From: a virus
Direction: 5' to 3' (one strand)
IMG/VR virus record: IMGVR_UViG_3300029619_000017
DNA: 41,155 nt
Of the stretch, positions 1-41,155 are shown in pieces. How positions within the stretch are numbered: position 1 is the first letter of the stretch; every line of letters starts with the position of its first letter. Under the pieces are notes generated by a model, which saw only the letters and a program-made list of their open reading frames with translations, made no database searches and was not told the DNA's origin. The translations under genes and the position numbers were made by a program.

Positions 1-99
1 GGCCTCCCGCCGGGAGCAGCTGAACCGCACAACGGTGAAAAATGCACTTTCGGAGCTTTACGACGCATACAGACAGCTTAAAAAATCAAAATCCCAGTA
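1..99. repeat. Terminal direct repeat, copy 1 (identical to 41057-41155)
   Basis: Read by eye: 99/99 identical bases at both window ends. Confidence 0.97.
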
Positions 100-2830
100 T
101 ATACAGGGGGTTTATAGTGAAACGGTAGAAAACCGTATTGAGGTAATTAAGGACACCTTGGGCGGAAAAACGGTTTCGGAAATGTCAAATTCCGAGCTTG
201 AACAGTTTTACGATGTTTATAAAATGCTCTATTCTTCGGTAACGGGTGCAAACAAAATCTTCGAAAGCGGAAAGAAAGCAACGGTTGAGGAAATGTCTCT
301 TGCGGTTATGGAGGAAATCGAAAAGGTCGGGAAAAACGACTCCTTGATTTCGGGCAAGCAGGCAGGAGACAGAAACCTTGCGACACAAAAGGCGATTGAC
401 GCAAAGCGAGGCATTGAATGGGAAATGCTCCAGCCTCTTACGGCCTTTTACAAGACCGGGTCTAAGACCTTCCGTGAGCTTTACAACCAGGCACTTGAGG
501 GACAGGACAAATGGGCGCGGCTTGTGGCGGAATTTAAAGCTTTTGCCACAGGAAAACGCAGACAACACGGCGTTTGGAGCATTGACGAGAGCATGGTCAC
601 GGAATATACCCTTGAAAGCGGAGAGCGGATAAAGCTGACCGTGCCTGAGCTTATGTCGGTATATGCCCTGTCAAGACGAGATCAGGGCAGAAAGCACCTT
701 TTGGTGGGCGGCATAACCCTTGCCGAGAACGAAATAAAAACGGGAGAAAAGGTGCTCGGAGTTGTCGACAAACGATACGGCAGAGACACGGCAAGGGCGT
801 ATCATCTGACCGAAGGAGATTTAAGCTTTCTTGCTGAAAGGCTTGACGGCAATCTGAGAAAATATGTTGAGGAAATGCAGGAATATCTTTCAACCGTCGT
901 TGCGGAAAAGGGTAACGAAGTGGCAAGGGTACTGTACGGTATCGACATATTCGGCGAGGCAAATTACTTCCCGATAAGTTCAGACAGACGGTTCCTTTTC
1001 TCTTCAAACAAAGCGGTTGACGCAGTTTCGCTGAAAAACATCGGAATGACAAAGAACACTGTTCCGAATGCGGCAAACCCTGTGGTAATTGCCTCCTTTG
1101 ACAAGGTTTGGAACGATCACACGGCAAAAATGGCTCTTTACAGTTCAATGGTGCTGCCTATCGAGAATATGAACAGGGTGCTTAATTTTACCTCCTACCT
1201 TTCGGAGGCGGATAGCTCGGCATATTCACGGTCGGTAAGGACGGTGCTTGAAGAAAATTTCGGAAAATCGGCGTCAAAATATTTTGAACAGTTTGTTATT
1301 GACCTTAACGGAGGCATTACGGGAGCAAAGGGCGGATTTTGGGAACGAGCCGTTTCAAATATGAAAAAGACGGCGGTGGCGGCAAGCCTTTCGGTTATCG
1401 TACAGCAGCCGACGGCCATTATTCGTGCTTTTGCTCTTATTAACCCGAAATACTTCGCCGGACTTAAAACTCAAAAGGAGATTGCAGGAACTTCACGCTA
1501 TGAGGAAATCAAACGCTGGGCACCGATTGCAATTGTCAAGGAAATAGGCGGTTTTGACACCGGGAGCGGCCGTGCGGCCACCGATTATATCGGGGCGAAG
1601 GAATACAGCGGAGCAAAAAACATTGTCAAAGGATTTTTCACCGACAAATATTACCGTGACGAAAAATTTATGGTCGGAGCGGCAAAGGCCGATGAGCTTG
1701 GCTGGGGAATGATTTGGGACGCAGTAAAGAGAGAGATCAGGGACACTACCAATCTTGAATTTAACTCGAAGGAATTCCTTGAGGCTTGCGGAAAACGGTT
1801 TACCGATGTAATCGTACAAACACAGGTTTACGATTCCACCCTTTCACGCTCTTCGATAATGCGAAACAAAAGCGATATTGCAAAAATGGCAACATCGTTT
1901 ATGGGTGAACCGATGACATCTTATAATATGCTTTACCGTGCCGCTCTTGATGTCAACAGGAGCAAGGGAAAGGCTATCGGGACTTCCGCCCGAGCGGTTG
2001 CGGCGGTTATCGGTTCGATGGTTGCCGGAGCGATTGTAAAAGCCTTAATTTCCGCAGGCCGTGACGATGATGATGACGAAAGCTATGCCGACAAATACTT
2101 TCAGGCCGTCGGCGGAGGACTTGTGGACGAGCTTAATCCCCTTAATCTTATTCCCTTTGCAAGAGATTTGGTTACGATTATTCAAGGCTACGACATTGAC
2201 CGAGCCGATATGACCCTTTTCAAGGATCTTTGGGACGCAATCACCAAGCTTGACAGCGACAAGATCAGCGATTACAGAAAGGTTGAAAATGTGGTCGGGT
2301 CCATATGTAACATTTTCGGATTGCCCGTGAGAAACATTATGCGTGATGTCAGAACGGCTTATAACTCGGCCGTATCTGCATTCCGTCCCTCTTCACGAAG
2401 TGTCGGCGAAGCTTTAACCGAAGGTATTACCGGCAAGGAAATAACCGAACTCGACAGATATGAGGCTCTTTACGACAAGGAGGACTTACAGGGAACAAAG
2501 GACTTGATTAAACAGATGATTGAGAAGGAGCGGGAAAAGCTTCTTTTAAAGGGAGAGGATCAATATGAGGTGAATTCCAAAGGTCAGAACAAGGTCAATA
2601 CCACCGCAAGGGCAAATGTCCGCAACAAATTCAGCAACAGATACCGTGACGAATACAAGGCGGCATATAAAAACAAGGACACGGTGACGGTTGCGAAAAT
2701 AAAAACACGGCTGAGTCTTACCGGGCTTTACGACGATCTTGATAAAATTCTTGAAGATTGGAGAAATGCGGCCGACGAGGAGGTGAAGAAGGAAAAAAGA
2801 GCCAAGGAATATGCCGAAAAAAACAAATAA
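2..2830 (+). CDS. C-terminal 942 aa of the giant polyvalent virion protein (continuation of 32952..41155 across the circular junction)
   Basis: The frame is open from the first base of the window. Position 35 maps to 41091, which is in the same frame as ATG 32952. The GTG at 35 has no RBS context. Stop is TAA at 2828-2830. Confidence 0.85.
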   Translation, partial: ASRREQLNRTTVKNALSELYDAYRQLKKSKSQYIQGVYSETVENRIEVIKDTLGGKTVSEMSNSELEQFYDVYKMLYSSVTGANKIFESGKKATVEEMSLAVMEEIEKVGKNDSLISGKQAGDRNLATQKAIDAKRGIEWEMLQPLTAFYKTGSKTFRELYNQALEGQDKWARLVAEFKAFATGKRRQHGVWSIDESMVTEYTLESGERIKLTVPELMSVYALSRRDQGRKHLLVGGITLAENEIKTGEKVLGVVDKRYGRDTARAYHLTEGDLSFLAERLDGNLRKYVEEMQEYLSTVVAEKGNEVARVLYGIDIFGEANYFPISSDRRFLFSSNKAVDAVSLKNIGMTKNTVPNAANPVVIASFDKVWNDHTAKMALYSSMVLPIENMNRVLNFTSYLSEADSSAYSRSVRTVLEENFGKSASKYFEQFVIDLNGGITGAKGGFWERAVSNMKKTAVAASLSVIVQQPTAIIRAFALINPKYFAGLKTQKEIAGTSRYEEIKRWAPIAIVKEIGGFDTGSGRAATDYIGAKEYSGAKNIVKGFFTDKYYRDEKFMVGAAKADELGWGMIWDAVKREIRDTTNLEFNSKEFLEACGKRFTDVIVQTQVYDSTLSRSSIMRNKSDIAKMATSFMGEPMTSYNMLYRAALDVNRSKGKAIGTSARAVAAVIGSMVAGAIVKALISAGRDDDDDESYADKYFQAVGGGLVDELNPLNLIPFARDLVTIIQGYDIDRADMTLFKDLWDAITKLDSDKISDYRKVENVVGSICNIFGLPVRNIMRDVRTAYNSAVSAFRPSSRSVGEALTEGITGKEITELDRYEALYDKEDLQGTKDLIKQMIEKEREKLLLKGEDQYEVNSKGQNKVNTTARANVRNKFSNRYRDEYKAAYKNKDTVTVAKIKTRLSLTGLYDDLDKILEDWRNAADEEVKKEKRAKEYAEKNK

Positions 2831-18284: not shown

Positions 18285-18285
18285 A

Positions 18286-19978: not shown

Positions 19979-20008
19979 AAAACAGGAGGATAGTAAAGAG
20001 AAAAAGAT

Positions 20009-20885: not shown

Positions 20886-20890
20886 TGATA

Positions 20891-26067: not shown

Positions 26068-26076
26068 GGAGGACAT

Positions 26077-26406: not shown

Positions 26407-26425
26407 TCCTCACCTCCGTTTTAAT

Positions 26426-26473
26426 TTGACGCCGTGGAAAGACACGAGATTGACGCCGTGGAAAGACACGAGA
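26426..26473 (+). repeat. Perfect 24-bp tandem duplication TTGACGCCGTGGAAAGACACGAGA x2 in the scaffold-gene leader
   Basis: Copies at 26426-26449 and 26450-26473, read directly. The second copy ends 12 nt before ATG 26486. Confidence 0.9.
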
Positions 26474-26485
26474 AAGGAACAATTT

Positions 26486-27334: not shown

Positions 27335-27367
27335 AGCTCTCCCCGAAAAGAAGGGAGAAAAAAACAA

Positions 27368-28621
27368 ATGAAACTATTAAAAATTATCCTCAATCTGTTT
27401 GACGGTTCCACCTCGCCCGACACCACCACCTCGCCCGGCATGTCCGCCGAGATGAAAACCTACTACGATAAGCAGCTGCTTACCAATGCCGAACCCCTGC
27501 TTATTCATGACCAGTTCGCCGACAAAAAACCCATTCCTCAGGGAAGCGGCAAGACCATAGAGTTCCGCCGCTTTGCTTCCCTACCTAAGGCTCTGACCGC
27601 CCTTACCGAAGCTGTAACTCCCAAGGGACAGAACATGAGCGTTTCGGCGATTACCGCAACCGTTAAGCAGTACGGCAACTGGATTCAGTCATCCGATCTT
27701 CTTCAGATGACCACCATTGACCCGGTGCTTGACGAAAGAACCAAAATTCTCGGCAGTCAGGCGGGACGAACCCTCGACACCATTACCCGAGAAATCGCAA
27801 ACGGCGGCACCAATGTTCAGTACGCACACAAGGTTTCGGGAGGCCAAAAAGCTCCGACTTACAGCCGCGGCGATCTGACGAAGGATTGTCACCTTACCCG
27901 CGACGAAATCTTCCGCGCGGCCGCAACCCTTAAAGCCAAGAATGCACCCACCATTGACGGCAAGTATGTTGCCATCATCCACCCCTACACCGCATACGAC
28001 ATAATGTCATCGGATGACTGGATAGATGTAAACAAATACAGCAACGCAACCAAGATTTTCAACGGCGAAATCGGCTCTCTCGGCGGGGTACGTTTTGTCG
28101 AAACCACCGAAGCTAAGGTGTTCCTTCCCGGTAAAATCTTCGGCGGCGGTGAAAGCTCGGCCGTGGTTGCGGCTGAAGCTGCTTCATCGACCACCACCAT
28201 TAAGGTCAGTGGCGTATTTACCAAGGCCTCGACCACCGTAAAGGTGTATGTTAACGGTACCGCAAATACCATTACCGCCGTTTCGGCAAACAGCTCCGAA
28301 GGCACGACCACACTTACTCTCGGCACGGCTCTTGCGGCGGCGGTTCCTGCCGGATCGGTCGTTTGCGGAACCGGAGCCTCAAAAAGTGCAGGCGCAGTAT
28401 TCAGTACCCTTGTACTCGGTGCTCATGCATATGCCACCACCGAGCTTTCGGGCGGCGGATTGCAGCACATCGTTAAGCAGCTCGGTTACGGAGATGACCC
28501 CCTCAATCAGAGGAGCTCGTCCGGCTGGAAAGCAACTAAGACCGCAGCCATTCTTAATCAGTTCTACATGGTGCGCATTGAGTCAATCAATGATTACAGT
28601 GCTGTGATCAGCGAAAATTAA
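27368..28621 (+). CDS. Major capsid protein with an N-terminal Prp-type cleavage signal and an internal insertion domain
   Basis: 417 aa. MKLLKIILNLFDGSTS.... Position after the scaffold gene. A T/S/A-rich beta-like insertion lies at about 28140-28390. Confidence 0.75.
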   Translation: MKLLKIILNLFDGSTSPDTTTSPGMSAEMKTYYDKQLLTNAEPLLIHDQFADKKPIPQGSGKTIEFRRFASLPKALTALTEAVTPKGQNMSVSAITATVKQYGNWIQSSDLLQMTTIDPVLDERTKILGSQAGRTLDTITREIANGGTNVQYAHKVSGGQKAPTYSRGDLTKDCHLTRDEIFRAAATLKAKNAPTIDGKYVAIIHPYTAYDIMSSDDWIDVNKYSNATKIFNGEIGSLGGVRFVETTEAKVFLPGKIFGGGESSAVVAAEAASSTTTIKVSGVFTKASTTVKVYVNGTANTITAVSANSSEGTTTLTLGTALAAAVPAGSVVCGTGASKSAGAVFSTLVLGAHAYATTELSGGGLQHIVKQLGYGDDPLNQRSSSGWKATKTAAILNQFYMVRIESINDYSAVISEN

Positions 28622-28927: not shown

Positions 28928-29299
28928 ATGACGGTACAAGACGCAATAGATAACGCAAAGCTTATGTGTGACGATCAATTCGACGATTCGGTCAAGTTTG
29001 TATGGATTCGCAACCTCGACCTTCAAATATACAATTCAATAATAAACACTCACAACGAAGATATGGAAGTCCCTGAGGAGTATTCGAGTGACACGGTTAT
29101 TATCATGCCTGCCCCCTACAATGAGGCTTACGGCTTTTATATTCAGGCACAGAGCTGTCTTGCGAATGCCGAAATAGACGAATACAACAACGCTATGTCG
29201 ATGTGTCAAAGCCTTATAGCGGATTTCCGTAATTTTTGGAACAGTAAGTACCCTTCTAAGACAACGGCTGAGGGGAAAAACAAGATGATACTATGGTAG
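28928..29299 (+). CDS. Putative head-tail adaptor
   Basis: 123-aa ORF, first gene after the capsid terminator. Called from position only. Confidence 0.4.
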   Translation: MTVQDAIDNAKLMCDDQFDDSVKFVWIRNLDLQIYNSIINTHNEDMEVPEEYSSDTVIIMPAPYNEAYGFYIQAQSCLANAEIDEYNNAMSMCQSLIADFRNFWNSKYPSKTTAEGKNKMILW

Positions 29300-29308
29300 G
29301 TGACATAT

Positions 29309-31402
29309 ATGAGCTATCCTATGCTGAATTCTCTCGGGAGAACACAGGAGTTTATACAGGAATTCAAGGGCTATAATCATAACTTACGTATAGGCTCATC
29401 GGAATTCTTTGACATGGAGAATTTGTCGTGTGATGACTATCCTATCATGACAACGAGAAAGAAAAGATACGAAATTGCTCAAACAAGAGCTTGTAGAGGA
29501 ATGGTGTCAAGAGGATTTGAGCATCCTATGTGGCTTGATGTTGACCCCTCCGATACTAAAGCCAATCCGAGCTTGTGGATATATGACAACGGCCAAAAGC
29601 AACAGACAACCGCCACAGGAGGTCTATTTATTCAAAGCACATCAAAAGCTGACAGACAAATGGTCAAGCTCGGAAGCAAGGTGTGTATATTTCCCGACAA
29701 AATATGGTTTGACAGCGAATGGGACTCGGCCGGAGAAGTCGACATAAAGAAAACATGGAACAAAATGGAGATATTTAACCCCGAGCTTCACACCGGACAG
29801 ACCACAAGCGCAGGTCATTACCGTACATTTATTGAATTTGTCCCTTGCGACGGAGACGGCAATGTTTATGTTCTTTCGTGGACACAGCATGACGAGCCGA
29901 GCAATGTAACAGAGAGCGATAACGGGAAATACTGGCTTTATACACCTGACAAAAACAATTCCGACAACAATAAAAAGTATGGAAGCTCGGCCGTGCTTTT
30001 CAAGCTTAGTTACCGAAACGAAAAAGCCTCATGGCTTCAAGTCTATGATTGGAAAACCGCTGTGAGAGACGATTTCGGAGCGTATTTATTCACCGGGCTT
30101 AAATCCGGAGACGTGGTTGACTTTTACTTCACGGACGATACAACCGCTAACGACACTCCACTCACCCGAGAAGACAACAACGATTATGCCGGAGATTTTC
30201 AAAAGGTCAATAAGACAACGTATACGGCGGCAACCGGCAAAAAAAGCTTTTACAAATATGCGTCTCGCGGCTACAAACTTACCGGAATGCTCAACGGCGA
30301 GGGCGGTATCATTCTTGACGTTCAGCTTGAGCCGTTTACATTTACGGTTACGGGTCCCGAGACAAATACCGACCAATACAACGTTAATTTTCTGAGTTTT
30401 GCAATATGCCGCAGAGTTCCCGATTTGGCATATGTGACCGAATATAACAACCGTCTTTGGGGATGTTCAAAGGACGGTCACGAAATTTATTGTACAAAGC
30501 TCGGAGACCCCGATAACTGGTATGCGTATGAAGGAATAAGCACCGACGCAGAGGCAATAACGGTCGGCACTGACGGCCTTTTCACCGGGTGTACTGCTTG
30601 GAACGGTCAAATTTTGTTTTTCAAAGAAAATTGCATACATAAGGTGTATGGAGACTACACTCCTTTCACGGCGGTTACCCTTGACGTCAAGGGCGTACAA
30701 AAAGGCAGTTATCGAGGCATTGCCATAATCGACGGCGTTTTATACTACAAGGCCATTGACGGCATATATGCCTATACGGGCAGTATACCTCAAAAAATTT
30801 CTCAAAATCTCGGGAATATGCTTTACACCGACGCCGTTTTCGGCACACTTGACAAGAAGCTTTACTGTTCCATGACAGACGAACGCGGAGACCATAAGCT
30901 TTTTGTCTATGATACGTCATACGGCATATGGACGAGAGAGCAGGATACCTATATGCGATTTTGCTGTGAATGTGACGGCGATATGTTTTATCTCGACGGA
31001 ACCGACGGCAAAATTAAGACTGTTGGAGGAACAGCCGGAAATCTTAATCTTACCGATACAAACCTTTCGAAAAACCCGTTTATACCGACAGAGGAACGGT
31101 CATTTAATTGGTTTTTTGAGTCGGGAAAGCTCGGGCTTGAAGACCCCAACAAGAAGTCCATATCCCGAATTATGATGAGACTCAAGTTTGAAAAAGGAGC
31201 GAGTCTCACGGTGTCATTGATGTATGATTCATCAGGAACATGGCAGACATACAGAACCGTATCGGCGGCAGAAAAGATGATGACCGTTAATATACCTATT
31301 GTTCCGAGACGGTGTGACCATTTGAAAATCAAGGTATCGGGCAAGGGCGGTTTTTACCTTTTCGGTCTTTCCAAAATGTACAAATCGGGGAGCAGACGAT
31401 GA
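29309..31402 (+). CDS. Putative tail tubular/nozzle protein with beta-propeller-like repeats
   Basis: About 697 aa, with AGGTG then ATG 29309. Recurrent DG.(L/I/F)YY / W.G...FF blade-like motifs in the C-terminal half. Occupies the T7 gp12-equivalent position. Confidence 0.4.
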   Translation: MSYPMLNSLGRTQEFIQEFKGYNHNLRIGSSEFFDMENLSCDDYPIMTTRKKRYEIAQTRACRGMVSRGFEHPMWLDVDPSDTKANPSLWIYDNGQKQQTTATGGLFIQSTSKADRQMVKLGSKVCIFPDKIWFDSEWDSAGEVDIKKTWNKMEIFNPELHTGQTTSAGHYRTFIEFVPCDGDGNVYVLSWTQHDEPSNVTESDNGKYWLYTPDKNNSDNNKKYGSSAVLFKLSYRNEKASWLQVYDWKTAVRDDFGAYLFTGLKSGDVVDFYFTDDTTANDTPLTREDNNDYAGDFQKVNKTTYTAATGKKSFYKYASRGYKLTGMLNGEGGIILDVQLEPFTFTVTGPETNTDQYNVNFLSFAICRRVPDLAYVTEYNNRLWGCSKDGHEIYCTKLGDPDNWYAYEGISTDAEAITVGTDGLFTGCTAWNGQILFFKENCIHKVYGDYTPFTAVTLDVKGVQKGSYRGIAIIDGVLYYKAIDGIYAYTGSIPQKISQNLGNMLYTDAVFGTLDKKLYCSMTDERGDHKLFVYDTSYGIWTREQDTYMRFCCECDGDMFYLDGTDGKIKTVGGTAGNLNLTDTNLSKNPFIPTEERSFNWFFESGKLGLEDPNKKSISRIMMRLKFEKGASLTVSLMYDSSGTWQTYRTVSAAEKMMTVNIPIVPRRCDHLKIKVSGKGGFYLFGLSKMYKSGSRR

Positions 31403-31977
31403 GTAACAAATACAACTATGAATTCCCCCCGACTCTTTCGGGAAATTCTTATCAGCAGATAGGACAGGTCAATGAATATCTATACAAGCTTGTTGATTTG
31501 ATGAGGGCAAAAGAGGCGATTGAATACAACACCGAAGACGGAATTCCCGAAATAAAGGCAGAGCAAAAGACGGCGGGAGTGTTGTTACTGAAAATCGGGA
31601 GCACACTTATCCAAAGCGGGCGTATGAACATCGGATTCAGTGACCTATCAAGTTCCGACTGGTCACTCCCTAAAACCATATCGGTGACAAAACGCACGAG
31701 CGCAGAAACCGAAGTCGGTACTTTTGCTCTCAGGCAGCTTGTATACACCTCTCCCGAAGTGTCTTTCCCCACCGAATACAAGACTATACCGCAGATATTT
31801 ATTGCACCTTCCGACTATATACGAAGCAAAACAGACTATTGCCTTTATGATTTTTCTGTTTGTGACCCAAAAAAAGAAGGTTTTTATGTCAAAAGCAGAA
31901 TAATGTCGGTCGGTTTCTTAATCGAAGATAACGATTTTTCCGTCCCTATTTCATGGCTTTCGATAGGGACGGTTTAA
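31399..31977 (+). CDS. Structural protein; the C-terminal half resembles an H-type-lectin-like beta sandwich
   Basis: 192 aa, ATGA-coupled. ...VSFPTEYKTIPQIFIAPSD...GFYVKS...ISWLSIG pattern. Weak call. Confidence 0.3.
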   Translation: MSNKYNYEFPPTLSGNSYQQIGQVNEYLYKLVDLMRAKEAIEYNTEDGIPEIKAEQKTAGVLLLKIGSTLIQSGRMNIGFSDLSSSDWSLPKTISVTKRTSAETEVGTFALRQLVYTSPEVSFPTEYKTIPQIFIAPSDYIRSKTDYCLYDFSVCDPKKEGFYVKSRIMSVGFLIEDNDFSVPISWLSIGTV

Positions 31978-31993
31978 GAGAGGAGTTTTTTTA

Positions 31994-32947
31994 ATGGCAA
32001 TCAGTTTTAATCCAATCAGTTATAACTTTTCGGAGTCTGACGAGGCAAAAAAGAAAAAGCAGCTTGCGGATCAGCAGTACGAAAGGCTTTTAAATTACGG
32101 CTCATACAACAGCAAGTACAACAATGACCTTGCGGCGGCGGTTGACGCCATAAAAAACAGGGAAAAATTTTCGTATAACGCCGCTGAGGACAATCTTTAT
32201 AACATCTATAAGGAGCAGGCCACCCGAGCGGGAAAACAGGCTATGGAGGACACTCAGGGCAAGGCGGCGGCTCTTACGGGAGGTTACGGCTCTTCCTACG
32301 GTCAGACGGCGGGACAACAGGTCTATAACAACTATATGAACGACCTGAACAGCAAGATACCCGAGCTTGAACAGCTGGCATATCAGAGGTATCAGCAAGA
32401 GGGGCAGGATTTATACAATCTTGCAAGCCTTTACCAAAACCTTGACAACACCGACTATACACGGTGGGCAACAGGCTTTGACCAGCAGGGCACGCTGGCC
32501 AATATGGCGCAGAGTATGTATGACACCCTTTACAACCGTGAAAAGAACAATTACGACAGCCACATTCAGAACGACTGGAACAATGCTAATGCCAAACTGA
32601 CCGCCGACGAGTATAACGACAAAATGGCCTATCAACGAGAGCGTGACAGCGTTTCGGACGCACAGTGGCGGGAGCAGATGAACGAAACCAAGAAAAACAA
32701 CGACCAGTCGGCGGCGATATCGAGCCTTAAGGCACAGCTTGAGGCCAAGGACAGCCAGTGGGTAGATAAAGAGTATTCCACCGTTTCAAACGGTGTCAAG
32801 TCAATTTATGAGAGATATAAAGGTGACACAAATAAATTGAGGAATGCCTTGATAAAATTTATGGAGGGTTTGCCTGAAAGCTATTCGCAATATCTTGCTT
32901 CGGCAGTAGGCGAATACGGAATTACGCTTGATAATATTTTGAGGTGA
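31994..32947 (+). CDS. Q/N/Y-rich structural (internal virion?) protein
   Basis: 317 aa. Strongly biased towards Q, N, Y, D and A with no hydrophobic core pattern. Lies immediately upstream of the giant ORF. Confidence 0.4.
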   Translation: MAISFNPISYNFSESDEAKKKKQLADQQYERLLNYGSYNSKYNNDLAAAVDAIKNREKFSYNAAEDNLYNIYKEQATRAGKQAMEDTQGKAAALTGGYGSSYGQTAGQQVYNNYMNDLNSKIPELEQLAYQRYQQEGQDLYNLASLYQNLDNTDYTRWATGFDQQGTLANMAQSMYDTLYNREKNNYDSHIQNDWNNANAKLTADEYNDKMAYQRERDSVSDAQWREQMNETKKNNDQSAAISSLKAQLEAKDSQWVDKEYSTVSNGVKSIYERYKGDTNKLRNALIKFMEGLPESYSQYLASAVGEYGITLDNILR

Positions 32948-32951: not shown

Positions 32952-35900
32952 ATGAACGCATTAGACGCATATAAGAAGAAAAAAGAGCAAAGCAGCGGAA
33001 GTGCTTACACCGTACTTATGGCAGATAGAATCAAATCGGGCAAGGACACCCTTTTTGACGATATTATGTCCTTCGGCAAAAGCTCAATGGGAGATAATGC
33101 GTACAGCAACTATTACAAGGGCGGTTTTAAAACTCCCGACGATTACACGGCGGCAAGCGATTTCCTGACAAGCTCCGTTGATACGGTGAACGGATATAAG
33201 GAACGGCTTGAAAAGAACCGTGCGGCATATGAGCGGGTGTACGGTGCAGAGGCGGTCAAAAAGCAGGAAGAAAGCCTGAATCAAATGCTGTCTCTATATA
33301 ACAGTCAAGACCTTTGGGACAGCATTAACAGCCGCAGAGATGTCTTTGCACAGTACAAGGATGCCGATGAGTATAATTCCCTTAACGATATGACAGCCGG
33401 ACAGGGAAAAACACTCGACGATAAGATTTCAGCGGCACAGGAAGAGTATAACAATGCTCTTTCCCTGCTGTCTAAGGCAAAAAAAGGAAAATACATCAGT
33501 CGGGTTAAACTGCCCGATTCGGAAAATCAGAATATTGATATAGAATCGGCAAAGGATAAAGAAAGCTTTGCAAAAGCCGAGCTTGAACGGCTTAAACAGT
33601 TGAAGCTTGATTGGGAAAAGGCAAGAGCGCAGTACGATGACGAGGGCACTCCTTTTTCGGAAAAGTATAACGGATATGACTATAAGGGAGTCGGGCTTGC
33701 GATAAATGCGCTTGCTTCAAAGGAATATGCGCTGTCGGACAGCCAAAAAAGAGAGCTTGAATGGCTTAGAGACAATCAAATAAGCTATGCAAACGACGAA
33801 GAGCTGAAAAATGCCCTTGCGCTTGCAAAGGGTCAGGCCGAGAATGCAAGGGAAAAAACAAACCAAATGCATTTTGCGGCAACATATGATATCAATAATC
33901 CCGATCCTTTCACCGAAGAACAAAAAAATCTTGCGGAAGAAGAGGCTGCAAGGTACCAAGCCAAGGCGGCCACGCTTGAAAACTACTACAACGAGCGCAA
34001 GGAAAATGAACGACTTGCGGCAATCGAAAAAGAAGTTCACGACAAATATATGCCTCTTCTTGATGATGAGGAATTTGCGAAACACACAACTGTCGAAAGT
34101 GACAAAAAGTCAAGTGTGTACTTGGGGTCAGACCGCACGACAGATGTTTATAATAATATTGCAAATGTGTACAATGCGAAAATGACTGATGACGAACGAA
34201 AAGTGTTTTATGGATTGTACAATACCGATAAAGAAAAAGCAACAAAGTACCTTGATGAGCTGGAACCGATTTTGAATAAAAGGACAACTGACGCTTGGGT
34301 GAAAGTTGCTCAAGAAGGGGCAGAAGAAAACCCAGTCCTTAACAGTGTTTTGGCAATAGCGACCAACCTTGCAAGCGGTATAGGCTCCGCCGACGCTCTT
34401 CTAAGAAAAGCCACGGGAAAGGAGATCGACACAAATTCCCCAGCAAATATTATGGCACACTATTCGAGCACGGCAAGAGGCACGACCTCACAAATGCTTA
34501 TCGATTACCTCAGAAAAAATCCCGACAGCTTTTGGAATACCAAAAGTTCGCTCTTCGGACGGGATGAGGACGGCAACGCCCGGGCATTCGGCCTTTTTGC
34601 AAAGGAAACGACCGAAAGTATGCTTGACAATCTTGCGAGAATTGCAGTTTCAAAGGGAATCGGGACAGGACTCAGTGAAAAGGCTCTGGAAACGATTGAT
34701 TTTGCCCTTATGGGAAGTCAGGTAGCCACACAAACCATTATAGACGCAAAGAAAAAAGGTCTTTCGGACGGTAAGGCTCTTGCAATGGGCTTTACTTCGG
34801 GCGCAATCGAGGCAATAACCGAAGTATGGAGCGTTGAAAGAATTCTCGGAAACCCGAAAAGCTTTATTACCACTCTCGGCAAATCTCTTGTTGCCGAAGG
34901 GAGCGAGGAAATCGCTTCTAACATTCTCAACCGTGCGGTTGATGTGCTTGTAAATGCCGACCAGTCGGAAGTGATGCAGGAATATTACGGCTATATTAAC
35001 GAGGGGTTATCTCCTTCGGAGGCTTCGGCCAAGACGGTTTCGGGCATTCTCGGAGACGATCTTTCGGCGGGACTGGGCGGCGCACTTTCGGGCGTTATGA
35101 TGAGCAGAGCAAACTACGGCATTGCCAAGAGCTATGCAAAGGCCGAGAATGTCAAAAACGGAGTCAGACAAATAAAGGTCGGCCGAGAATTAAAATCGGC
35201 AGACAGCGTTATAACCTCCCTTGACGAGATTATCGCCGCAAATCCCGACAATAAGGAAGTAGTGACGGCAAGGGAAGCCATTGAAAAGGGCGAAAAGGTA
35301 TCGGCAAGGCGGCTTGGAAAGCTGCTTACGGACGAATTTTCGGCACAGTACGAAAAGGCCGTGACGGATGTGGACAGCACGGAGGTCAAGGCAAAGTTGG
35401 AGCAAAAGGGCGTAAAGAACGCCGATGCGCTTTCAAAGACCATTGCAAAGGCCTTTAACGAGGGATATGATTCGGTCAAGGGGCAGGAGCGAACCGAGCT
35501 TACTCACAACTCGGAGGCAATGGAGGTATACAAAGAATACCAAACCGAGAGAGAAAATGCGGCCGAAAACAGCGGCAGACTTTTCAGGGTGTATTCTGAT
35601 GTTGACCGTTCCGAGCTTGTTTCCTATGCGAAGGAGCAGGGTAAAAATAACAGCTTTATCCGGGAGGCCTCCGACCTTGCGGAGGGAAAAACCGACCTTG
35701 ATTCTCTTGATAATCTGCAAGAGGCGGTATTTTCCGAGATTACCGATCAGTTTTTGTCGGCCGATACGGTAGAAGAGGCACGGACGGTTTATAAGGAGCT
35801 TGCAAAAGGAGCCGGAAAGGGCATAAAATCACTGCTTGACATGGCTCTTGACAACCGCACCGAAGAAATCACGGCCGCAAACAGCTATGACACGGTGGAA

Positions 35901-38900
35901 AGCGTTTCCTTCAACGACACAAAAGACGGTGTCGAGGCGGTTGTTTCCACCGCAAAGGGAAAGAACCTCTCCCCTCTTTCGGCGAATATCGGATATGAGG
36001 CAGCCGCAGTCATAAACAATGCCGCGGACCGACCGACCGCCGTGAGAAATCTCTATGCAAACGAATATCTCGAAAGCAACCGCCACCTTGTTGCCTCGAC
36101 CTATAACGCTTCTTTTGAAAAATATTATAAGGCCGGAGAAAAGGGGCAGAGCTTTTCCGACATTAAACGCACATCGAGAGACATAAAACCGTCGAGTGCC
36201 CGCAGAATATACGAAGCAGGCAGAGCACAGGCGGGAGCCGAACGAAACAGACAGGAGCAGTATAAACAGTCGGACGAGTACAAAAACCGCTCAAAGGAGC
36301 GCACAGAGCAAAATGCGGCCGCAAAAAAGCAGGGCGGCGTTGTGCGGGAATATTCGGCAAGCAAAAAAGTGAACAGGAAGCTGAGGGGACAGCTCCGACT
36401 GCTCGATGTTTGGGCAAAGGAAAAGGGCGTTGTTATCCGTGTAGTTTCGAGCCTTGCCGAGAAATATAATCTTGAAGGAAAGATTATAAACGGGCAGTAT
36501 GAGGGCGGAAACACGATTGTCATTGCCCTTGACGGTAAAAATGCGCTGACCTCCACGGCGGGGCACGAGATGTACCATATGATTGAAAATCTTTCGCCGG
36601 AGTATGCGCAGAGCTTCAGGGAATTTGTCATAGACCACCTTAAGGCGGCGGGAAAATATGATTCGGTTTTTGCGGACTATGAGAAAAGATACGGAAAGAC
36701 CTATGCAAGGGACGAGGACTTTAAGGCCAAAATCGACGAGGAAATCGTTGCCGACCACTGCTTTGAAGCACTGACCAACAAGGAGCAGTGGGACAGCTTT
36801 GCGGCCGAAAACAAAACGCTTTCCGACAAGATAATGGAATTTATCAAGGAATTTGTGGCAATGATAAACCGTGCCTTTGACAAATATTTCGTTCACGACA
36901 ACGCCGAAATCCGAAACGAGGTTTTGGGCGAGGTTGATTATATGAACGAAATTGCCCGGCGGCTTTCGGAGGGCGTGGACGAGGCGGTGGAGAATTACCG
37001 TTTCGGTGCCGGCACGGAGAGTGAGACAAGGTTTTCGATTGGATATACTTTGGATAACAAGGCTGTTGCAATTATTGAAGATGATATTCTTGCGGGTGTT
37101 CCAAAATCCGAATGGATAAAAACCGTCAAGGATACTATTTCCGGAAAGTTCTCAAGCGGCATTCCCGTAAGCGGTCGACTTATCAAGGTAAATCGTATTA
37201 CAAAAAACGAGTTTACGAACTCAAAAGATACAAAGAACTTGAAAAACAATAAGACTGTTTACAAAGACAAGCTTAAGTCCGCAAACAATCTTGACGATAT
37301 TGTCTTGGCTTCCACCAATTATATTAACGAGGATTTAAAGCACACTCGAAAGGACAATTTCAAGGAGTTTGCTCGTGGAGATGTTTCAATCCGAATCGGA
37401 AACAATGATTATTCGGCAAAGGTTATTGTGGGTTTCACATCGGGCGGAAACATGGTCTTATATGATATTATCAATTTTACCCCTACAAAATTTGTATTAA
37501 ATGAAAAAAAGAAGGCACGCAATACCGCTATGCATCAAAATGATGCAGGAAGCGATAGAACACGCGTACCTTCTGATACCATTATACGCACAAACGATAA
37601 AAAAAGTCAAGGGAAAATTTCCTCTTTTTCGATTTCGGACGAGGAATATATGTCTGCGGCGGAAAGCGGTGACACAAGACTTGCCCAAAGAATGGTAAAC
37701 GAGGCGGCGGGTGAAGCGGGGTATAATTCTCCCCTGCTCTATCACGGCACACAAAATTTCGGCTTTACCGAATTTGACCTTAACAAAATGGGTGACGGTC
37801 GGAGCATTTTCCTCACCTCGAGCAGGGAAATAGCCTCCACCTATTCGGGCGTCGGCGGAAAAAGGAATATCGAAGCTCCCAAAAGCTCGGCAAATATGAC
37901 GATTGACGAGGTGGCAAAGGCTCTTAACGAGGTTTCGAAAAGAGACAACGGCGACCTTGAGCTTTCATCCTATCGGGTCATGACCAAAAAAGACCTTACC
38001 ACTCTTGAAAGAAACGTCGACAAGGGTATCGAGGACTTGTATGACACGGTACAGAAGAAAATAGACCTTTACGGTGAAAAGCTTGCGAGGGACTTTAACG
38101 ATAAGGATGAAAAGACCTTAAATCAGCTTGTCGACCTTTCCGACCTTTTGGAGCATTATTCTTATGACAAGCTGTCCACTCCCCTTTATATGCTGCTCCA
38201 CCACTCCGATGCTTTTACCACGGAAAAGTTTGAGCTTTCCGACCTTGAGGCCGATGTGCGGCTTATGCAGCTGCTTAAAAAGAACGACCTTTCAAATGGC
38301 GTTGTCGTTGCCGAAGATAAGGACAGATATTACATTCGTGCTCTTGACCGGGAAAAGGCGGCGAAACTGCTTGACGAGCAAAACGCACAGGGAAACTATA
38401 CCCTCTTTGCAAAGCTGGGCAATTATCTCGAAATCGACGGCAAGGGAAAGAACTGGAACAAGATATTTGCCGTGCTTGAGCCGCAGGAGAAAACCACCTT
38501 TTCGGCGAAATACAACACCGACACAAATACTCTTGTGCTCAGCGACGAAAAAGGTACCTTTGCCGAAATAAAGAGAGATACTCTTGACGAAGCCACACCC
38601 GCCATGGCAAGAGCCATAACATACAGATACGGCAAATTCCTTGCGGCGACAGTGCTTTCACAGGCGAGAGATCAGCTTAAAAACAGTGCGACGGCCGAAG
38701 TGCAGGTCAGAGCCGTGGGAGACAGAAACACAAGGGAGATTGCCGAGTTTGCCGACGAGCAGGGCTATGACAGCGTTGTTTTCCGTGACCTTATGGACAA
38801 CGGCGGACAAAACAGCAAGGTCGGCAGCTCAACCACGGCCGACATTTATATCATCTTCGACCCAAACAATGTCAAATCTGCCGACCCGATAACCTATGAC

Positions 38901-41155
38901 AACGACGGCAACATTATTCCCCTTTCCGAACGGTTTAACGAGAACGAAAAGGATATAAGGTATCAAATATCGGACAACGCCGAAAAAGATGTTCAAGCTT
39001 TACTTGAAGGCAAGAAATTTACGGAGGACATTAAACTCACCGATTCCAGTCCTCGTATTATTTTGGGTCATAAGGGCGTTAAAAATCTTCCTATGCTGAT
39101 GAAGCCAAGTCATATCTTGGAAAACATTCTTACTACGGAGGAGGCCGAAAAGAGGGGTCTTAAAATAGATCCCGAAAAGATACATTATCACGGACTCGGC
39201 AAAACTCTGTTTCTTGATGTTATTCGAAGCCTTGACGATGTCAATCAGGCTTACAGGGGAACAAAAAACGCCGCTGACTCGTCACGGCGTGAAAATTATT
39301 TCCTGCTTATTTCTACTTTGAAAGATACCGAAGGCAATGTGATAAATGTCCCTGTTTATATTAACGAGCAAGGAAGATATAACCGTGTTTCAATAGATAC
39401 AAACAAGATTGGGACGGCTTTTGGAAGAGAGCAACTTCAAAGGTATATTCAGAAAGAAATCAAAAACGGTAATTTGGTGAGAATAAAAAAGAGAAGCTCC
39501 CTCGACAGTGGGCTGACAGGAGATAAAGTCCCTGACAGGCATAACGAAGCTACTTCTCGCGGAGGCTCCGAAGTTAGTGAGAAGCCGACAACAAAGGCCG
39601 ACGACTATTACAGCATTGCCTCTGATGATATTATACTCAACTCAACCGAAAAAAGTCAAGAAAAATTTTCGAAAATTTCGAAAAAACTTCTGACCGACGA
39701 GGTTAAAGCCTCAATATCCGATGCGGGAATGAGGCTGACCGATGACAAGGAGCTTTCCTCCCTACTGAGAGAACAGGCCTATAAGGAGGAGATAGACCGA
39801 CTCAAGGGCGAGCTTGTGAAATCCAAGCGAATGGGCGGCAAGGGCAAAAACCGCCTTATGAAGCAGGACATTAACCGCATTGCAAGGGATATCATTTCCG
39901 AATATTCAAGCAAAATAGACTCTTCAACGCTGAGGGACGAGCTTACTGGGCTTTATGAGTTTATGGACAACGCCGAAATGCAAAGCTCGGCGGACTATGC
40001 CGAGCTTGTGAAGCGGTCAACCGACATTGCAAAATCGGTTATTGCAAGCTCATATGTTGACATTACCGAACAAAGCGCAGAGGACTACAAGGCGGCAATG
40101 AGACACTACCGACTGACACCGAGCCTTAAGGATGTGGCCGAGCTTGAAGGAATGTTCGGCACCTTCGGAGCGGCATATAGGCAATACGGCCGAAAGCTCA
40201 ATATGCGGGCACAGGGAACGCCGGGGGCGTTACACATCGACGAGGTGTGGGACGAGCTTTGCAACAGCGTTCCGTTTCTTGACAGAGACGCCGTAAGCAC
40301 GCAGGATATGTGGCGAAATCTTATCGAGGTCAGAGACAGTCTCGACGAGAAAAACGGCTTTAATCCCTATATCACCGACGGAGATTTGACGGCAAATGAG
40401 GCGGCGGGTGCGCTGGGTGCGGACATACTCGAACGGTTTAACGAGGTCAGAGCCGACACGACCTTTGCCGACCGTGCACAGCAGCGGGTTGATTTGCGGG
40501 AGCGGAAAATATCCGAGCTTAAAGCCGAGAACAGAAGAAAACTTGCGGAGGCAAGAACACAGAGAGAACAGCGTATCGAGAGCCTAAAGCAAAGCTTCAG
40601 AGAGCAAAACCGCAAAAATCGGGAGCGAAGAAACGGCACCGACACCAAAAACAAGATAAGGCGGGTCGTTAAAAAACTCCGTTCGCTGTATCTGCACCCC
40701 ACCAAGGAGCGGAACATCAAAAAAGAGCTTAGGCCGATGATTGAAAAAACGCTGACCGCCTCCGAGTTCCTTTTTGCAAAGCAAAAGAGCGATTATGAAA
40801 TACTTATGGGAGTATCGCTTTCGGACGTTGGGAACAATACCAAGGCCGCCGAGTCTCTTGTAAAGCTTAACGAGACCTATCTTGCCTTTTCGGAGACAAA
40901 CGCCGAGATTTCACGGATAAAGGAGCAAATTGAATCTGCCGACGGACAGAACCTTTCGGAGCTTGAGCAGAGGTCGGAAGTGCTTACAAAGCAGAGGGAC
41001 AAACAGCGGGATTTGCTCAAAAGCATTGCGGCCGAAAACGGACTTGATAAGCTTGCGGCCTCCCGCCGGGAGCAGCTGAACCGCACAACGGTGAAAAATG
41101 CACTTTCGGAGCTTTACGACGCATACAGACAGCTTAAAAAATCAAAATCCCAGTA
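32952..41155 (+). CDS. N-terminal about 2,735 codons of the giant polyvalent virion protein (ORF runs off the window end and continues at 2..2830; total 3,644 aa)
   Basis: GAGGTG RBS then ATG 32952. My manual frame-0 translation met no stop up to 41155. The ORF track has no frame-0 + ORF over these 8.2 kb, as expected for an ORF lacking a stop inside the window. HEMYH at 36564-36578. YHGT...SSREIASTY ART-like segment from 37632. Confidence 0.85.
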   Translation, partial: MNALDAYKKKKEQSSGSAYTVLMADRIKSGKDTLFDDIMSFGKSSMGDNAYSNYYKGGFKTPDDYTAASDFLTSSVDTVNGYKERLEKNRAAYERVYGAEAVKKQEESLNQMLSLYNSQDLWDSINSRRDVFAQYKDADEYNSLNDMTAGQGKTLDDKISAAQEEYNNALSLLSKAKKGKYISRVKLPDSENQNIDIESAKDKESFAKAELERLKQLKLDWEKARAQYDDEGTPFSEKYNGYDYKGVGLAINALASKEYALSDSQKRELEWLRDNQISYANDEELKNALALAKGQAENAREKTNQMHFAATYDINNPDPFTEEQKNLAEEEAARYQAKAATLENYYNERKENERLAAIEKEVHDKYMPLLDDEEFAKHTTVESDKKSSVYLGSDRTTDVYNNIANVYNAKMTDDERKVFYGLYNTDKEKATKYLDELEPILNKRTTDAWVKVAQEGAEENPVLNSVLAIATNLASGIGSADALLRKATGKEIDTNSPANIMAHYSSTARGTTSQMLIDYLRKNPDSFWNTKSSLFGRDEDGNARAFGLFAKETTESMLDNLARIAVSKGIGTGLSEKALETIDFALMGSQVATQTIIDAKKKGLSDGKALAMGFTSGAIEAITEVWSVERILGNPKSFITTLGKSLVAEGSEEIASNILNRAVDVLVNADQSEVMQEYYGYINEGLSPSEASAKTVSGILGDDLSAGLGGALSGVMMSRANYGIAKSYAKAENVKNGVRQIKVGRELKSADSVITSLDEIIAANPDNKEVVTAREAIEKGEKVSARRLGKLLTDEFSAQYEKAVTDVDSTEVKAKLEQKGVKNADALSKTIAKAFNEGYDSVKGQERTELTHNSEAMEVYKEYQTERENAAENSGRLFRVYSDVDRSELVSYAKEQGKNNSFIREASDLAEGKTDLDSLDNLQEAVFSEITDQFLSADTVEEARTVYKELAKGAGKGIKSLLDMALDNRTEEITAANSYDTVESVSFNDTKDGVEAVVSTAKGKNLSPLSANIGYEAAAVINNAADRPTAVRNLYANEYLESNRHLVASTYNASFEKYYKAGEKGQSFSDIKRTSRDIKPSSARRIYEAGRAQAGAERNRQEQYKQSDEYKNRSKERTEQNAAAKKQGGVVREYSASKKVNRKLRGQLRLLDVWAKEKGVVIRVVSSLAEKYNLEGKIINGQYEGGNTIVIALDGKNALTSTAGHEMYHMIENLSPEYAQSFREFVIDHLKAAGKYDSVFADYEKRYGKTYARDEDFKAKIDEEIVADHCFEALTNKEQWDSFAAENKTLSDKIMEFIKEFVAMINRAFDKYFVHDNAEIRNEVLGEVDYMNEIARRLSEGVDEAVENYRFGAGTESETRFSIGYTLDNKAVAIIEDDILAGVPKSEWIKTVKDTISGKFSSGIPVSGRLIKVNRITKNEFTNSKDTKNLKNNKTVYKDKLKSANNLDDIVLASTNYINEDLKHTRKDNFKEFARGDVSIRIGNNDYSAKVIVGFTSGGNMVLYDIINFTPTKFVLNEKKKARNTAMHQNDAGSDRTRVPSDTIIRTNDKKSQGKISSFSISDEEYMSAAESGDTRLAQRMVNEAAGEAGYNSPLLYHGTQNFGFTEFDLNKMGDGRSIFLTSSREIASTYSGVGGKRNIEAPKSSANMTIDEVAKALNEVSKRDNGDLELSSYRVMTKKDLTTLERNVDKGIEDLYDTVQKKIDLYGEKLARDFNDKDEKTLNQLVDLSDLLEHYSYDKLSTPLYMLLHHSDAFTTEKFELSDLEADVRLMQLLKKNDLSNGVVVAEDKDRYYIRALDREKAAKLLDEQNAQGNYTLFAKLGNYLEIDGKGKNWNKIFAVLEPQEKTTFSAKYNTDTNTLVLSDEKGTFAEIKRDTLDEATPAMARAITYRYGKFLAATVLSQARDQLKNSATAEVQVRAVGDRNTREIAEFADEQGYDSVVFRDLMDNGGQNSKVGSSTTADIYIIFDPNNVKSADPITYDNDGNIIPLSERFNENEKDIRYQISDNAEKDVQALLEGKKFTEDIKLTDSSPRIILGHKGVKNLPMLMKPSHILENILTTEEAEKRGLKIDPEKIHYHGLGKTLFLDVIRSLDDVNQAYRGTKNAADSSRRENYFLLISTLKDTEGNVINVPVYINEQGRYNRVSIDTNKIGTAFGREQLQRYIQKEIKNGNLVRIKKRSSLDSGLTGDKVPDRHNEATSRGGSEVSEKPTTKADDYYSIASDDIILNSTEKSQEKFSKISKKLLTDEVKASISDAGMRLTDDKELSSLLREQAYKEEIDRLKGELVKSKRMGGKGKNRLMKQDINRIARDIISEYSSKIDSSTLRDELTGLYEFMDNAEMQSSADYAELVKRSTDIAKSVIASSYVDITEQSAEDYKAAMRHYRLTPSLKDVAELEGMFGTFGAAYRQYGRKLNMRAQGTPGALHIDEVWDELCNSVPFLDRDAVSTQDMWRNLIEVRDSLDEKNGFNPYITDGDLTANEAAGALGADILERFNEVRADTTFADRAQQRVDLRERKISELKAENRRKLAEARTQREQRIESLKQSFREQNRKNRERRNGTDTKNKIRRVVKKLRSLYLHPTKERNIKKELRPMIEKTLTASEFLFAKQKSDYEILMGVSLSDVGNNTKAAESLVKLNETYLAFSETNAEISRIKEQIESADGQNLSELEQRSEVLTKQRDKQRDLLKSIAAENGLDKLAASRREQLNRTTVKNALSELYDAYRQLKKSKSQ
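41057..41155. repeat. Terminal direct repeat, copy 2 (identical to 1-99)
   Basis: Read by eye: 99/99 identical bases at both window ends. Confidence 0.97.

Follow-up and report, generated by a model that had tools for sequence, protein, structure and literature searches.

We closely examined a window of 41,155 nucleotides (nt) from the IMG/VR virus record IMGVR_UViG_3300029619_000017, the window being the whole stretch of DNA that was analysed, and found in it a single gene for a giant protein of 3,644 amino acids (aa) that is interrupted by the ends of the linear record. An exact 99-bp direct repeat links both ends (window 1-99 = 41057-41155, no strand assigned; no other exact terminal repeat was found), which is a mark of circular or permuted assembly and not a gene boundary. 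Since this terminal repeat is duplicated, the unit genome comprises 41,056 bp. The initial annotation had proposed that a long gene is hidden by the linearisation point, and translation bore this out: the frame starting with the ATG at 32952 is open over 2,734 codons up to 41155 with zero stops, and the closest in-frame stop upstream of the ATG is at 32940. The open reading frame (ORF) list contains 35..2830 (931 aa, GTG start) as its sole long entry in this region and just short off-frame ORFs past 32952; this apparent gap arises because the ORF lister leaves out ORFs running off an end. Position 41091 (codon 2714) is in phase with 32952, as (41091-32952) mod 3 = 0, and equals position 35, so that ORF 35..2830 is the in-phase continuation via the 99-bp overlap, as had been suggested. 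The 5' part of the gene thus occupies 32952..41155 (aa 1-2734, the last 99 nt being the copy of window 1-99) and the 3' part 1..2830, both on the plus strand like all segments of the giant gene described below. With the duplicate removed, the joined ORF ends with the stop codon 2828-2830 and measures 10,935 nt including the stop, which is 26.6% of the 41,056-bp genome; the protein has a computed mass of 408.6 kDa and a pI of 5.7. Also the predicted translation start was found as annotated, with a GAGGTG ribosome-binding site (32941..32946, plus strand) 5 nt before the ATG that shares nucleotides with the stop codon of the 317-aa gene directly upstream (31994..32947, plus strand). The latter ends 4 nt before the ATG, with equal spacing in the related contig L001, and is a conserved partner, as homologues with 36-49% identity are located directly upstream of the giant gene in two more distant relatives (L003 and L009).

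The same gene was found in genomes that are linearised elsewhere. Two IMG/VR contigs of ~40.5 kb, L001 and L002, are 95-98% identical to the window at the DNA level and carry uninterrupted giant ORFs of 3,515 and 3,462 aa, respectively, between the same neighbours (317-aa gene upstream, 393-aa gene downstream). Uninterrupted ORFs are also present in the distant relatives L003 (IMG/VR contig; 3,825 aa) and L009 (a Flemingiibacterium metagenome-assembled genome [MAG]; 3,537 aa), and a representative in a public protein library (P0123; 3,514 aa) is 96% identical to the window protein over the C-terminal module. In comparison with L001 and L002, the ratio of nonsynonymous to synonymous substitution rates (dN/dS) stays at 0.05-0.21 in all 300-codon blocks of the conserved parts, and the block that spans the junction (aa 2646-2945) has 0.16-0.19. 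Blocks differ in the synonymous rate dS, with values from 0.005 to 0.55, which points to mosaic ancestry inside the giant gene. The giant gene is therefore one real gene, split only by the cut point of a circular contig, and the junction proposed in the initial annotation holds.

The encoded protein consists of a conserved scaffold, formed by an N-terminal region, an HExxH domain and a C-terminal module of ~1,000 aa, around a variable centre. This scaffold makes up ~60% of the protein and has no match in Pfam, NCBIfam or the Protein Data Bank (PDB). For 110 relatives with lengths of 2,800 aa or more, all retrieved using the C-terminal module, we determined which regions of the window protein they cover. 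Residues 2700-3500, which belong to that module, were detected in 100% of them, aa 2500-2600 in 60-70%, aa 1100-1350 (HExxH domain) in 50-62% and aa 600-800 in ~40%. The centre (aa 1350-2250) was detected mostly in <15% and aa 1-400 in <5% (1-5%).

At its N terminus, the protein starts with a charged, coiled-coil-like region (aa 1-399; 32952..34148) with 30-36% charged residues that is poorly conserved. It is followed by a scaffold segment rich in glycine, alanine and serine (aa 400-850; 34149..35501) with invariant G, E and S columns and a weakly hydrophobic stretch at aa 466-484; sequence and profile searches with aa 400-850 revealed no known family and no PDB relative. The zincin-like HExxH domain spans aa 1040-1360 (36069..37031), with the motif HEMYH at aa 1205-1209 (nt 36564-36578). 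Two alignments, with 13 and 15 relatives, show the two histidines and the glutamate of the motif to be invariant, together with a further glutamate ~58 residues downstream (EEIVAD, aa 1263-1268). Among the 15 relatives, three matched MPTase-PolyVal weakly (best E 0.0032), and weak matches to the putative metallopeptidase family DUF6782 were obtained for four (best E 0.0025). An AlphaFold2 model of the domain (predicted local distance difference test score [pLDDT], 70.8) shows a small beta-sheet, followed by the HExxH helix and the glutamate on a later helix, an order of elements that we take to be the gluzincin arrangement. Beyond the variable centre, the scaffold resumes with a helical, charged segment (aa 2219-2509; 39606..40478) that is 88-99% identical in close relatives.

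The C-terminal module, which is the signature of the family, starts with aa 2510-2702 (40479..41056), continues at window position 1 and extends to aa 3535 (1..2500). Its AlphaFold2 model is all-alpha (pLDDT 71.2; predicted template modelling score [pTM] 0.71), so that both models from the segment-wise structure prediction that had been recommended reach a pLDDT of ~71; neither gave a significant match in the PDB. In a fold search of the viral structure database BFVD, the module matched 78 models at E ≤ 0.001, with query-normalised TM-scores of 0.5-0.7 for most of the best 44. All 78 are pieces of large phage proteins that are named for their other domains, e.g., Nuclease, PolyVal ADP-ribosyltransferase, MuF C-terminal, LPD, N-acetyltransferase or Type I restriction enzyme. 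Chains of the cyanophage A4 pre-ejectosome came up in the PDB fold searches at E values of about 1-3, which we do not regard as evidence. The module also contains the strongest hydrophobic segment of the whole protein, a conserved transmembrane (TM)-like helix, AVAAVIGSMVAGAIVKALI (aa 3367-3385; 1994..2050; Kyte-Doolittle [KD] value 2.17), which is followed by the invariant acidic run RDDDDDE. Furthermore, the protein matches phrog_22978 (PHROGs v4; profile length 3,513) with an E value of 1.4e-266 and 889 bits. The best of three matching stretches aligns aa 2628-3495, the C-terminal quarter, with profile positions 2326-3154. This protein family carries no functional annotation.

Other database matches were few. 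A weak match to Tad8, a Thoeris inhibitor (PF25189; 16.3 bits versus a cut-off of 27), was observed at aa 3551-3592 (nt ~2546-2671) in the highly charged C-terminal tail and is probably compositional. It was put down to chance, as were weak Pfam matches to DUF5623, DUF5798, YfbR-like and BUD31. The PADLOC and NCBIfam libraries gave no match for the giant protein, and PDB sequence searches with both protein halves and with profiles of the C-terminal module, the HExxH domain and the N-terminal region yielded nothing meaningful.

The variable centre harbors three modules, which we assigned with the Pfam profiles LPD3, ART-PolyVal and MuF_C (gathering cut-offs of 27, 31.2 and 27.6 bits, respectively). 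The first is an LPD3-type module (aa 1363-1557; 37038..37622), in which aa 1409-1500 match LPD3 (PF18798) with 22.9 bits; the corresponding scores in relatives at this locus are 37.1 bits in L003 and 26.6 bits in L001. The second is a divergent ADP-ribosyltransferase (ART) module (aa 1561-2002; 37632..38957) with an insertion of ~270 aa, which splits the match to ART-PolyVal (PF18760) into two pieces, aa 1596-1636 with 26.2 bits and aa 1903-1978 with 16.2 bits. These cover profile positions 9-51 and 72-134, respectively, and both remain below the cut-off, which the module of L001 passes with 51 bits. The third, a MuF-C module (aa 2006-2218; 38967..39605), matches MuF_C (PF18819) at aa 2109-2178 with 24.4 bits. 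Here, the L001 module, which is 93% identical, scores 24.0 bits, and L002 has another module in this place that reaches 42.6 bits. MuF-C domains are predicted RNases of the PBECR type (PMC5512222).

The polyvalent ART clade is defined by a histidine in strand 1, a tyrosine in strand 2 and an aspartate in strand 5 (PMC5512222). In the window protein, the predicted active site consists of H1598, F1620 in place of the tyrosine and D1940, and the G-x-G-F-Y-F-S motif reads GRSIFLTSS. A motif alignment showed that the phenylalanine and the insertion are conserved in the ART subfamily (P0001, P0035, P0036, P0050 and P0120), which argues for a constrained variant and not for decay.

The Pfam matches of the window protein are few yet mutually coherent, and PF18760, PF18819, PF18798, PF18812, PF18814 or PF18838 is present in about 120 homologues of the centre. 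One of them, P0001, which is 95% identical to the window protein over the ART module, has PF18760 and PF18819 on record. Pfam searches with 13 giant relatives identified ART-PolyVal four times, LPD3 three times, PBECR5 twice and MuF_C once, and nothing in the scaffold. The mosaic, polyvalent architecture with HExxH and ART-like modules that the initial annotation had put forward is thus supported, with sub-threshold matches in the window protein and relatives that pass. The tiled profile searches proposed there for polyvalent families recovered LPD3, ART-PolyVal and MuF_C, all below cut-off; the MuF head domain PF04233 gave no match with the whole protein or the tiles at E values up to 1. Lysozyme, transglycosylase or amidase domains were not detected in the giant protein by Pfam searches either. 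As a separate observation, L003 harbors another large central module (~aa 1300-1800 of 3,825) that has no Pfam match, is common in distant giant relatives and is absent from the window protein. In the alignment consensus, it shows the conserved motifs ...CKKR..., G.E.AC..CFVES.R, GG.R.QSFSDF, AYTK, G.KINLS and IPYH.S and may be an undescribed enzyme domain.

Comparison of near-identical phages revealed that the centre is exchanged as cassettes. The window DNA shares 95-98% identity with L001 and L004 on the left as far as 37034 and on the right beginning at 38872, and the 1.84 kb in between (37035..38871) have no counterpart there; in L002, the replaced stretch corresponds to 37040-39667. The central DNA replaced among phages of 95-98% identity thus amounts to 1.8-2.6 kb. 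The left breakpoint lies at ~aa 1360, where the HExxH domain ends and where the alignments of most relatives stop as well. Between the HExxH domain and the C-terminal module, relatives have from 275 to as many as 2,069 aa. The three modules assort independently: the LPD3 module is 98% identical in P0002 and unmatched in L001, L002 and P0001; the ART module is 95% identical in P0001, with at best partial matches of 33-57% in other relatives; and the MuF_C module is 92-93% identical in L001, P0002 and P0003 and unmatched in P0001. The scaffold segments are 81-99% identical in L001, L002, P0001 and P0003 and 65-91% in other close homologues. The G+C content at third codon positions (GC3) ranges from 0.37 to 0.59 along the gene, with 0.37 for the LPD3 module and 0.41 for the MuF_C module versus 0.575 for the ART module, 0.586 for the HExxH domain and 0.52 for the C-terminal module. 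The low values of the LPD3 and MuF-C modules suggest recent acquisition from donors of lower GC content.

Short linkers with an aromatic residue and mostly serine are found at all borders of the central modules, namely RFSIG at aa 1360, SFSIS at aa 1558, RYQIS at aa 2003 and YYSIA at aa 2219 (nt ~37029, 37623, 38958 and 39606). The pattern [RKSY][FY][SQ][ILV][SGADEN] matches four times in the 3,644 aa, each time at a module border, versus 0.67 ± 0.82 times in shuffled sequences. A related motif, YSDR (...DIRYSDR...), is 6.7-fold enriched in the centres of distant relatives. The linkers are candidate cleavage or recombination sites.

We also analyzed how widespread the family is. An index-free search of representative clusters (50% identity) with aa 2714-3535 as query retrieved 3,941 clusters at E ≤ 0.001, including 2,749 at E ≤ 1e-30; a word-indexed search with the C-terminal query returned two proteins. 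Among the best 149 of the 3,941, the median length is 3,426 aa and the module is located at the C-terminal end, most of these proteins comprising 3,000-4,650 aa. With thousands of relatives, giant size is the rule in the family defined by the C-terminal module. Against deposited phage genomes, megablast gave no match, and tblastn against 50,697 deposited phage genomes showed the scaffold to be common to two uncultured human-faecal contigs only. The initial annotation had called it unusual for a temperate 41-kb phage to spend over a quarter of its genome on one such gene; given the 3,941 clusters, the median of 3,426 aa among the best matches and a published ORF of ~20% of the genome in 41-kb prophages (PMC11318856), this was overstated.

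Besides the giant proteins, large bacterial contigs were found to contain stand-alone ORFs with lengths of 1,286-1,800 aa (e.g., L006 10001-14299 and L013 9962-13861) that are homologous only to aa ~1005-2516, i.e., to the HExxH domain, the modules and the helical segment. Their neighbours include a GH31 gene with dockerin, histidine kinases and an ABC transporter, and no prophage genes were found within 10 kb. The copy in L006 is flanked by 570-nt direct repeats (9429-10001 and 14167-14737) with a small antisense ORF in each. P0001, P0004, P0007 and others show the same abrupt ends with different modules; introns were considered as the cause of these truncated homologues and ruled out because the genes stand alone in chromosomes. 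The stand-alone copies might represent remnants, toxins that have been domesticated or a reservoir of cassettes.

The genome around the giant gene is that of a temperate phage. Genes for TerS, TerL, portal, a Prp-like cysteine protease, a 312-aa protein and the major capsid protein (22264-28621) are followed by those for a 123-aa protein, a 700-aa protein matching an 'internal virion protein' PHROG, a 192-aa and a 317-aa protein (28928-32947), the giant gene itself (32952-2830, across the junction), and a 393-aa protein, an endolysin, a 108-aa ORF without matches and a holin (2882-5620). An integrase and CI-like repressors are encoded on the minus strand (7444-11475), and 14137-22036 harbors genes for a Gam-like protein, an exonuclease, NinB, a DnaD-like loader, SSB, methyltransferases and a late regulator. 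No terminator-like site was found between the giant-gene stop and 5857, and the first ones on the plus strand follow the lysis genes. The portal protein matches P22_portal with 110 bits, and no genes for tape measure, tail tube, sheath, chaperone or distal-tail (Dit/Tal) proteins were found in the genome. Among cultured phages, the closest relatives of the major capsid protein are found in Bacillus megaterium phage Page and related members of the genus Pagevirus (38% identity), and the portal of Page is annotated as 'podovirus-type'. Moreover, a contig from an uncultured human-gut Ruminococcaceae MAG is 94% identical over the C-terminal module. Based on gene content, the P22-type portal, the Pagevirus-like capsid and the gut MAG relative, the phage looks temperate and podovirus-like, with a gut clostridial host of the Ruminococcaceae/Oscillospiraceae. 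P22-like phages encode their ejection proteins at a position equivalent to that of the giant gene (PMC10386132).

Several further features of this genome were noted. The gene for the Prp-like cysteine protease (PF04327, 35.8 bits; 26077-26406, plus strand) lies between the portal gene and the 312-aa ORF (phrog_13908, function not assigned). The protease might act on head proteins and perhaps also on the giant protein, as an alternative processing enzyme to the zincin domain. The major capsid protein (27368-28621, plus strand) aligns to that of Page in two pieces (aa 27-249 and 336-406), which implies an insertion of ~85 aa that is missing from the Page protein. Two adjacent ORFs on the plus strand (20009-20653 and 20895-21560) align with successive portions of one DNA methyltransferase profile, phrog_116 (positions 255-392 and 414-489), and are overlapped by a third ORF (20193-20885); the pair could represent a split or frameshifted methyltransferase gene. 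Finally, a 445-aa ORF beside the integrase in the lysogeny region (8848-10185, minus strand) has no PHROGs, Pfam or NCBIfam match and could be lysogen-expressed cargo.

The closest described counterparts are the polyvalent proteins of phages and conjugative elements, for which packaging into the capsid and processing by their own metallopeptidases have been predicted (Iyer et al. 2017, PMC5512222). Like these (PMC5512222), the giant protein combines unrelated activities in one polypeptide (a divergent ART of the H-Y-D clade, a predicted MuF-C/PBECR nuclease, LPD and a putative zincin-like peptidase), is encoded next to virion genes in a portal-terminase phage and varies in domain content between orthologues. 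Polyvalent proteins are recognized by at least two disparate domains in one polypeptide; here a single ORF holds LPD3, ART-PolyVal, MuF_C and an HExxH domain, and the same modules or others in the same position pass the Pfam cut-offs in L001, L002 and L003; they are also recognized by the virion-gene context in a portal-terminase phage, and TerS, TerL, portal, capsid and 'internal virion protein' genes lie upstream here. Unlike typical members, the window protein shows sub-threshold domains, lacks a MuF match (PF04233) and has a scaffold of ~60% without database match. It is also 3,644 aa long, and we found no size limit stated in PMC5512222. As the definition applies while each single-domain Pfam threshold is missed, we file it as a divergent polyvalent protein, the undescribed part of which is the scaffold.

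Some individual systems resemble it more specifically. The prophages phi1 and phi4 of Clostridium clostridioforme LM41 carry an 'unusually large (8 kb) ORF' of ~20% of the genome with similarity to LPD3, which the authors suggest protects incoming phage DNA (PMC11318856). Going by the published description, these are likewise ~41-kb temperate elements of a gut Clostridia host and predicted podoviruses; they differ in that the ORFs lie at the prophage 3' end and measure ~8 kb instead of 10.9 kb, with no domain dissection or cassette analysis reported. In the temperate podovirus phi24B (Stx2, E. coli), mass spectrometry detected gp47 (vb_24B_48; 933W-type phages) as an abundant protein of virions; it is not visible in the cryo-EM map, and its authors proposed an encapsidated ejection protein (bioRxiv 10.64898/2026.04.10.717836). 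With 2,807-2,811 aa and LPD and MuF-C domains it is similar to the giant protein, but it has a different set of LPD domains (LPD1, LPD5 and LPD38), a Gram-negative host and a gene that lies behind the tail fibre genes and lom, at the genome's far end. The virion RNA polymerase (vRNAP) of N4, with ~3,500 aa, is encapsidated in and ejected from a podovirus capsid (PMC13434306). Its MPTase domain is needed for encapsidation, and in some relatives a fusion to the same ART clade is present (PMC5512222). The N4 schitoviruses differ in being lytic with 70-kb genomes, and their vRNAP is not homologous to the giant protein, in which no Pfam, PHROG or PDB match to a single-subunit RNA polymerase domain was found. 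The ejection proteins of P22 (gp7, gp16 and gp20) and T7 (gp14, gp15 and gp16) are comparable in gene position, behind the head and tail genes of a podovirus whose portal is of the P22 type, in the expected role in envelope passage and in a membrane-active segment. In contrast to the single 409-kDa protein, they are several proteins of 20-140 kDa, without sequence or fold similarity to it and without swappable enzyme cassettes. For gp20 of Bacillus phage Page (1,679 aa), which occupies the same relative position, BLAST found nothing and hhalign gave a probability of 16%.

Taken together, we consider it fairly probable that the giant gene is a late gene for a 409-kDa polyvalent protein that is packaged in the capsid and injected with the DNA, with a conserved chassis and a variable payload. 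The chassis would comprise the Gly/Ala-rich N-terminal region, the zincin-like HExxH...E peptidase, the helical linker and the all-alpha C-terminal module of ~1,000 aa with its TM-like helix; the payload would be LPD3, the H-Y-D-clade ART (here H-F-D with a large insertion) and the MuF-C/PBECR predicted RNase. From the position of the gene and the analogues phi24B gp47 and N4 vRNAP, we infer that virion packaging and injection are likely. The 4-nt spacing and the absence of a terminator-like site before 5857 indicate co-transcription with the head, tail and lysis genes. A few copies of the protein would then be enclosed in the capsid during assembly and, at infection, leave with the DNA through the P22-type portal and the short tail, the N- and C-terminal modules presumably serving encapsidation, envelope passage or both. 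The zincin domain may cut the polypeptide at the linkers ([RSY][FY][SQ]I; aa 1360, 1558, 2003 and 2219), and the freed enzymes would modify host proteins or RNA, thereby blunting defence or taking over the cell before phage expression. The payload is replaced by recombination between otherwise near-identical phages, as the swapped cassettes show, and such swapping is the pattern expected for arms-race effectors.

A number of results weigh against this interpretation. Direct evidence of virion association is lacking for any protein that shares the C-terminal module. This module showed no similarity to phi24B gp47 (hhalign probability 1%), and neither its profile nor that of the N-terminal module resembled the MuF-type head-morphogenesis protein of Vibrio phage D65. 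It also has no fold match (E ≤ 0.001) and no profile match in the PDB, ejectosome components included. All four effector and peptidase assignments in the window protein are below curated thresholds. The HExxH domain of the window protein itself matches neither MPTase-PolyVal nor DUF6782, and its model found no PDB structure at E ≤ 0.001 with Foldseek, the best being YbeY (1oz9) with a probability of 0.25. Judging from its residues, the ART with phenylalanine for the catalytic tyrosine may have an altered activity or none. The linker pattern was chosen after viewing the data, and the exact pattern is not enriched in distant relatives. Finally, the stand-alone middle parts in chromosomes imply that the modules can also exist without a capsid.

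Alternatively, the protein might be mainly a structural ejection (pilot) protein that forms a channel through the Gram-positive wall and membrane, with modules acting on the envelope or on DNA entry. Its gene lies where P22-like phages encode ejection proteins (PMC10386132), conservation falls on the N- and C-terminal modules, which are not enzymatic and include the TM-like helix, and a conduit role together with wall degradation was proposed for gp47 by the phi24B authors (bioRxiv 10.64898/2026.04.10.717836). Nevertheless, we regard this as unlikely, since in all cases described, ART and PBECR-type RNase domains have their targets in the cytoplasm (PMC5512222), no domain for wall degradation of the lysozyme, transglycosylase or amidase type was detected in the giant protein, and the fast module swapping fits effectors better than channel parts. 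A pilot function and delivery of effectors are, however, not mutually exclusive.

The occurrence of middle-part homologues as stand-alone genes in ordinary chromosomal surroundings, where prophage genes are absent within 10 kb, and the placement of the equivalent LM41 ORF under accessory genes (PMC11318856) would also fit an unpackaged accessory or toxin gene (moron), the product of which acts in the producing cell or is released at lysis, with polymorphic toxins as the model. This is decidedly improbable, as the gene is located inside the late structural operon between tail and lysis genes, with 4-nt spacing and no terminator-like site before 5857. It is syntenic with its upstream partner in distant relatives, the loci of L001, L002, L003 and L009 share the gene order of the window, most top relatives are 3,000-4,650 aa long with the same C-terminal module at the end, and neither a signal peptide nor a secretion domain was identified.

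As it is very large, mostly helical and encoded in the structural module, with Gly-rich and hydrophobic stretches, the protein could also be taken for a tape measure or another tail component of a long-tailed phage. We give this very little credence: tail tube, sheath, chaperone and distal-tail genes were not found in the genome, the portal is of the P22 type, the capsid relatives belong to Pagevirus with a 'podovirus-type' portal in Page, and enzyme modules and a variable centre are unlike tape measures. Tape measure proteins scale with tail length at ~0.15 nm per residue, and 3,644 residues would give a tail of ~550 nm. Least of all do we expect an assembly artefact, i.e., a chimeric contig or two genes fused by a false circular overlap, to which the 99-bp terminal repeat would correspond as the product of an assembler k-mer overlap, since four independent contigs from other samples (L001, L002, L003 and L009) hold the uninterrupted gene, dN/dS over the junction block is 0.16-0.19 and the 96% identical P0123 exists in a public protein library.

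As an extension of the packaged polyvalent protein, it is conceivable, if speculative and on balance doubtful, that the N- and C-terminal modules constitute a new, very widespread ejection device of short-tailed phages of Gram-positive gut bacteria, made of a single polypeptide and doubling as a plug-in delivery chassis. The effector modules would then be placed between the linkers, which would serve both as cleavage sites of the zincin domain and as recombination junctions, and the promoter-equipped middle parts in chromosomes would be a cassette reservoir or host decoys. Independently of this, the chassis, for which there is no solved or annotated relative, is a candidate answer to how DNA and protein of short-tailed phages pass the walls of Gram-positive gut anaerobes.

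Automatic pipelines in which circular contigs are not rejoined will divide the giant gene or overlook it, so that one of the largest and most common families of gut-phage proteins is under-reported. The tolerance of the chassis for payloads of 275-2,069 aa suggests a route to engineered protein delivery by phage particles. Near-identical phages (95-98%) that differ only in the modules of a fixed chassis represent a natural experiment, and matching their module sets to host defence repertoires could reveal the targets of LPD3, the ART subfamily and the MuF-C nucleases.

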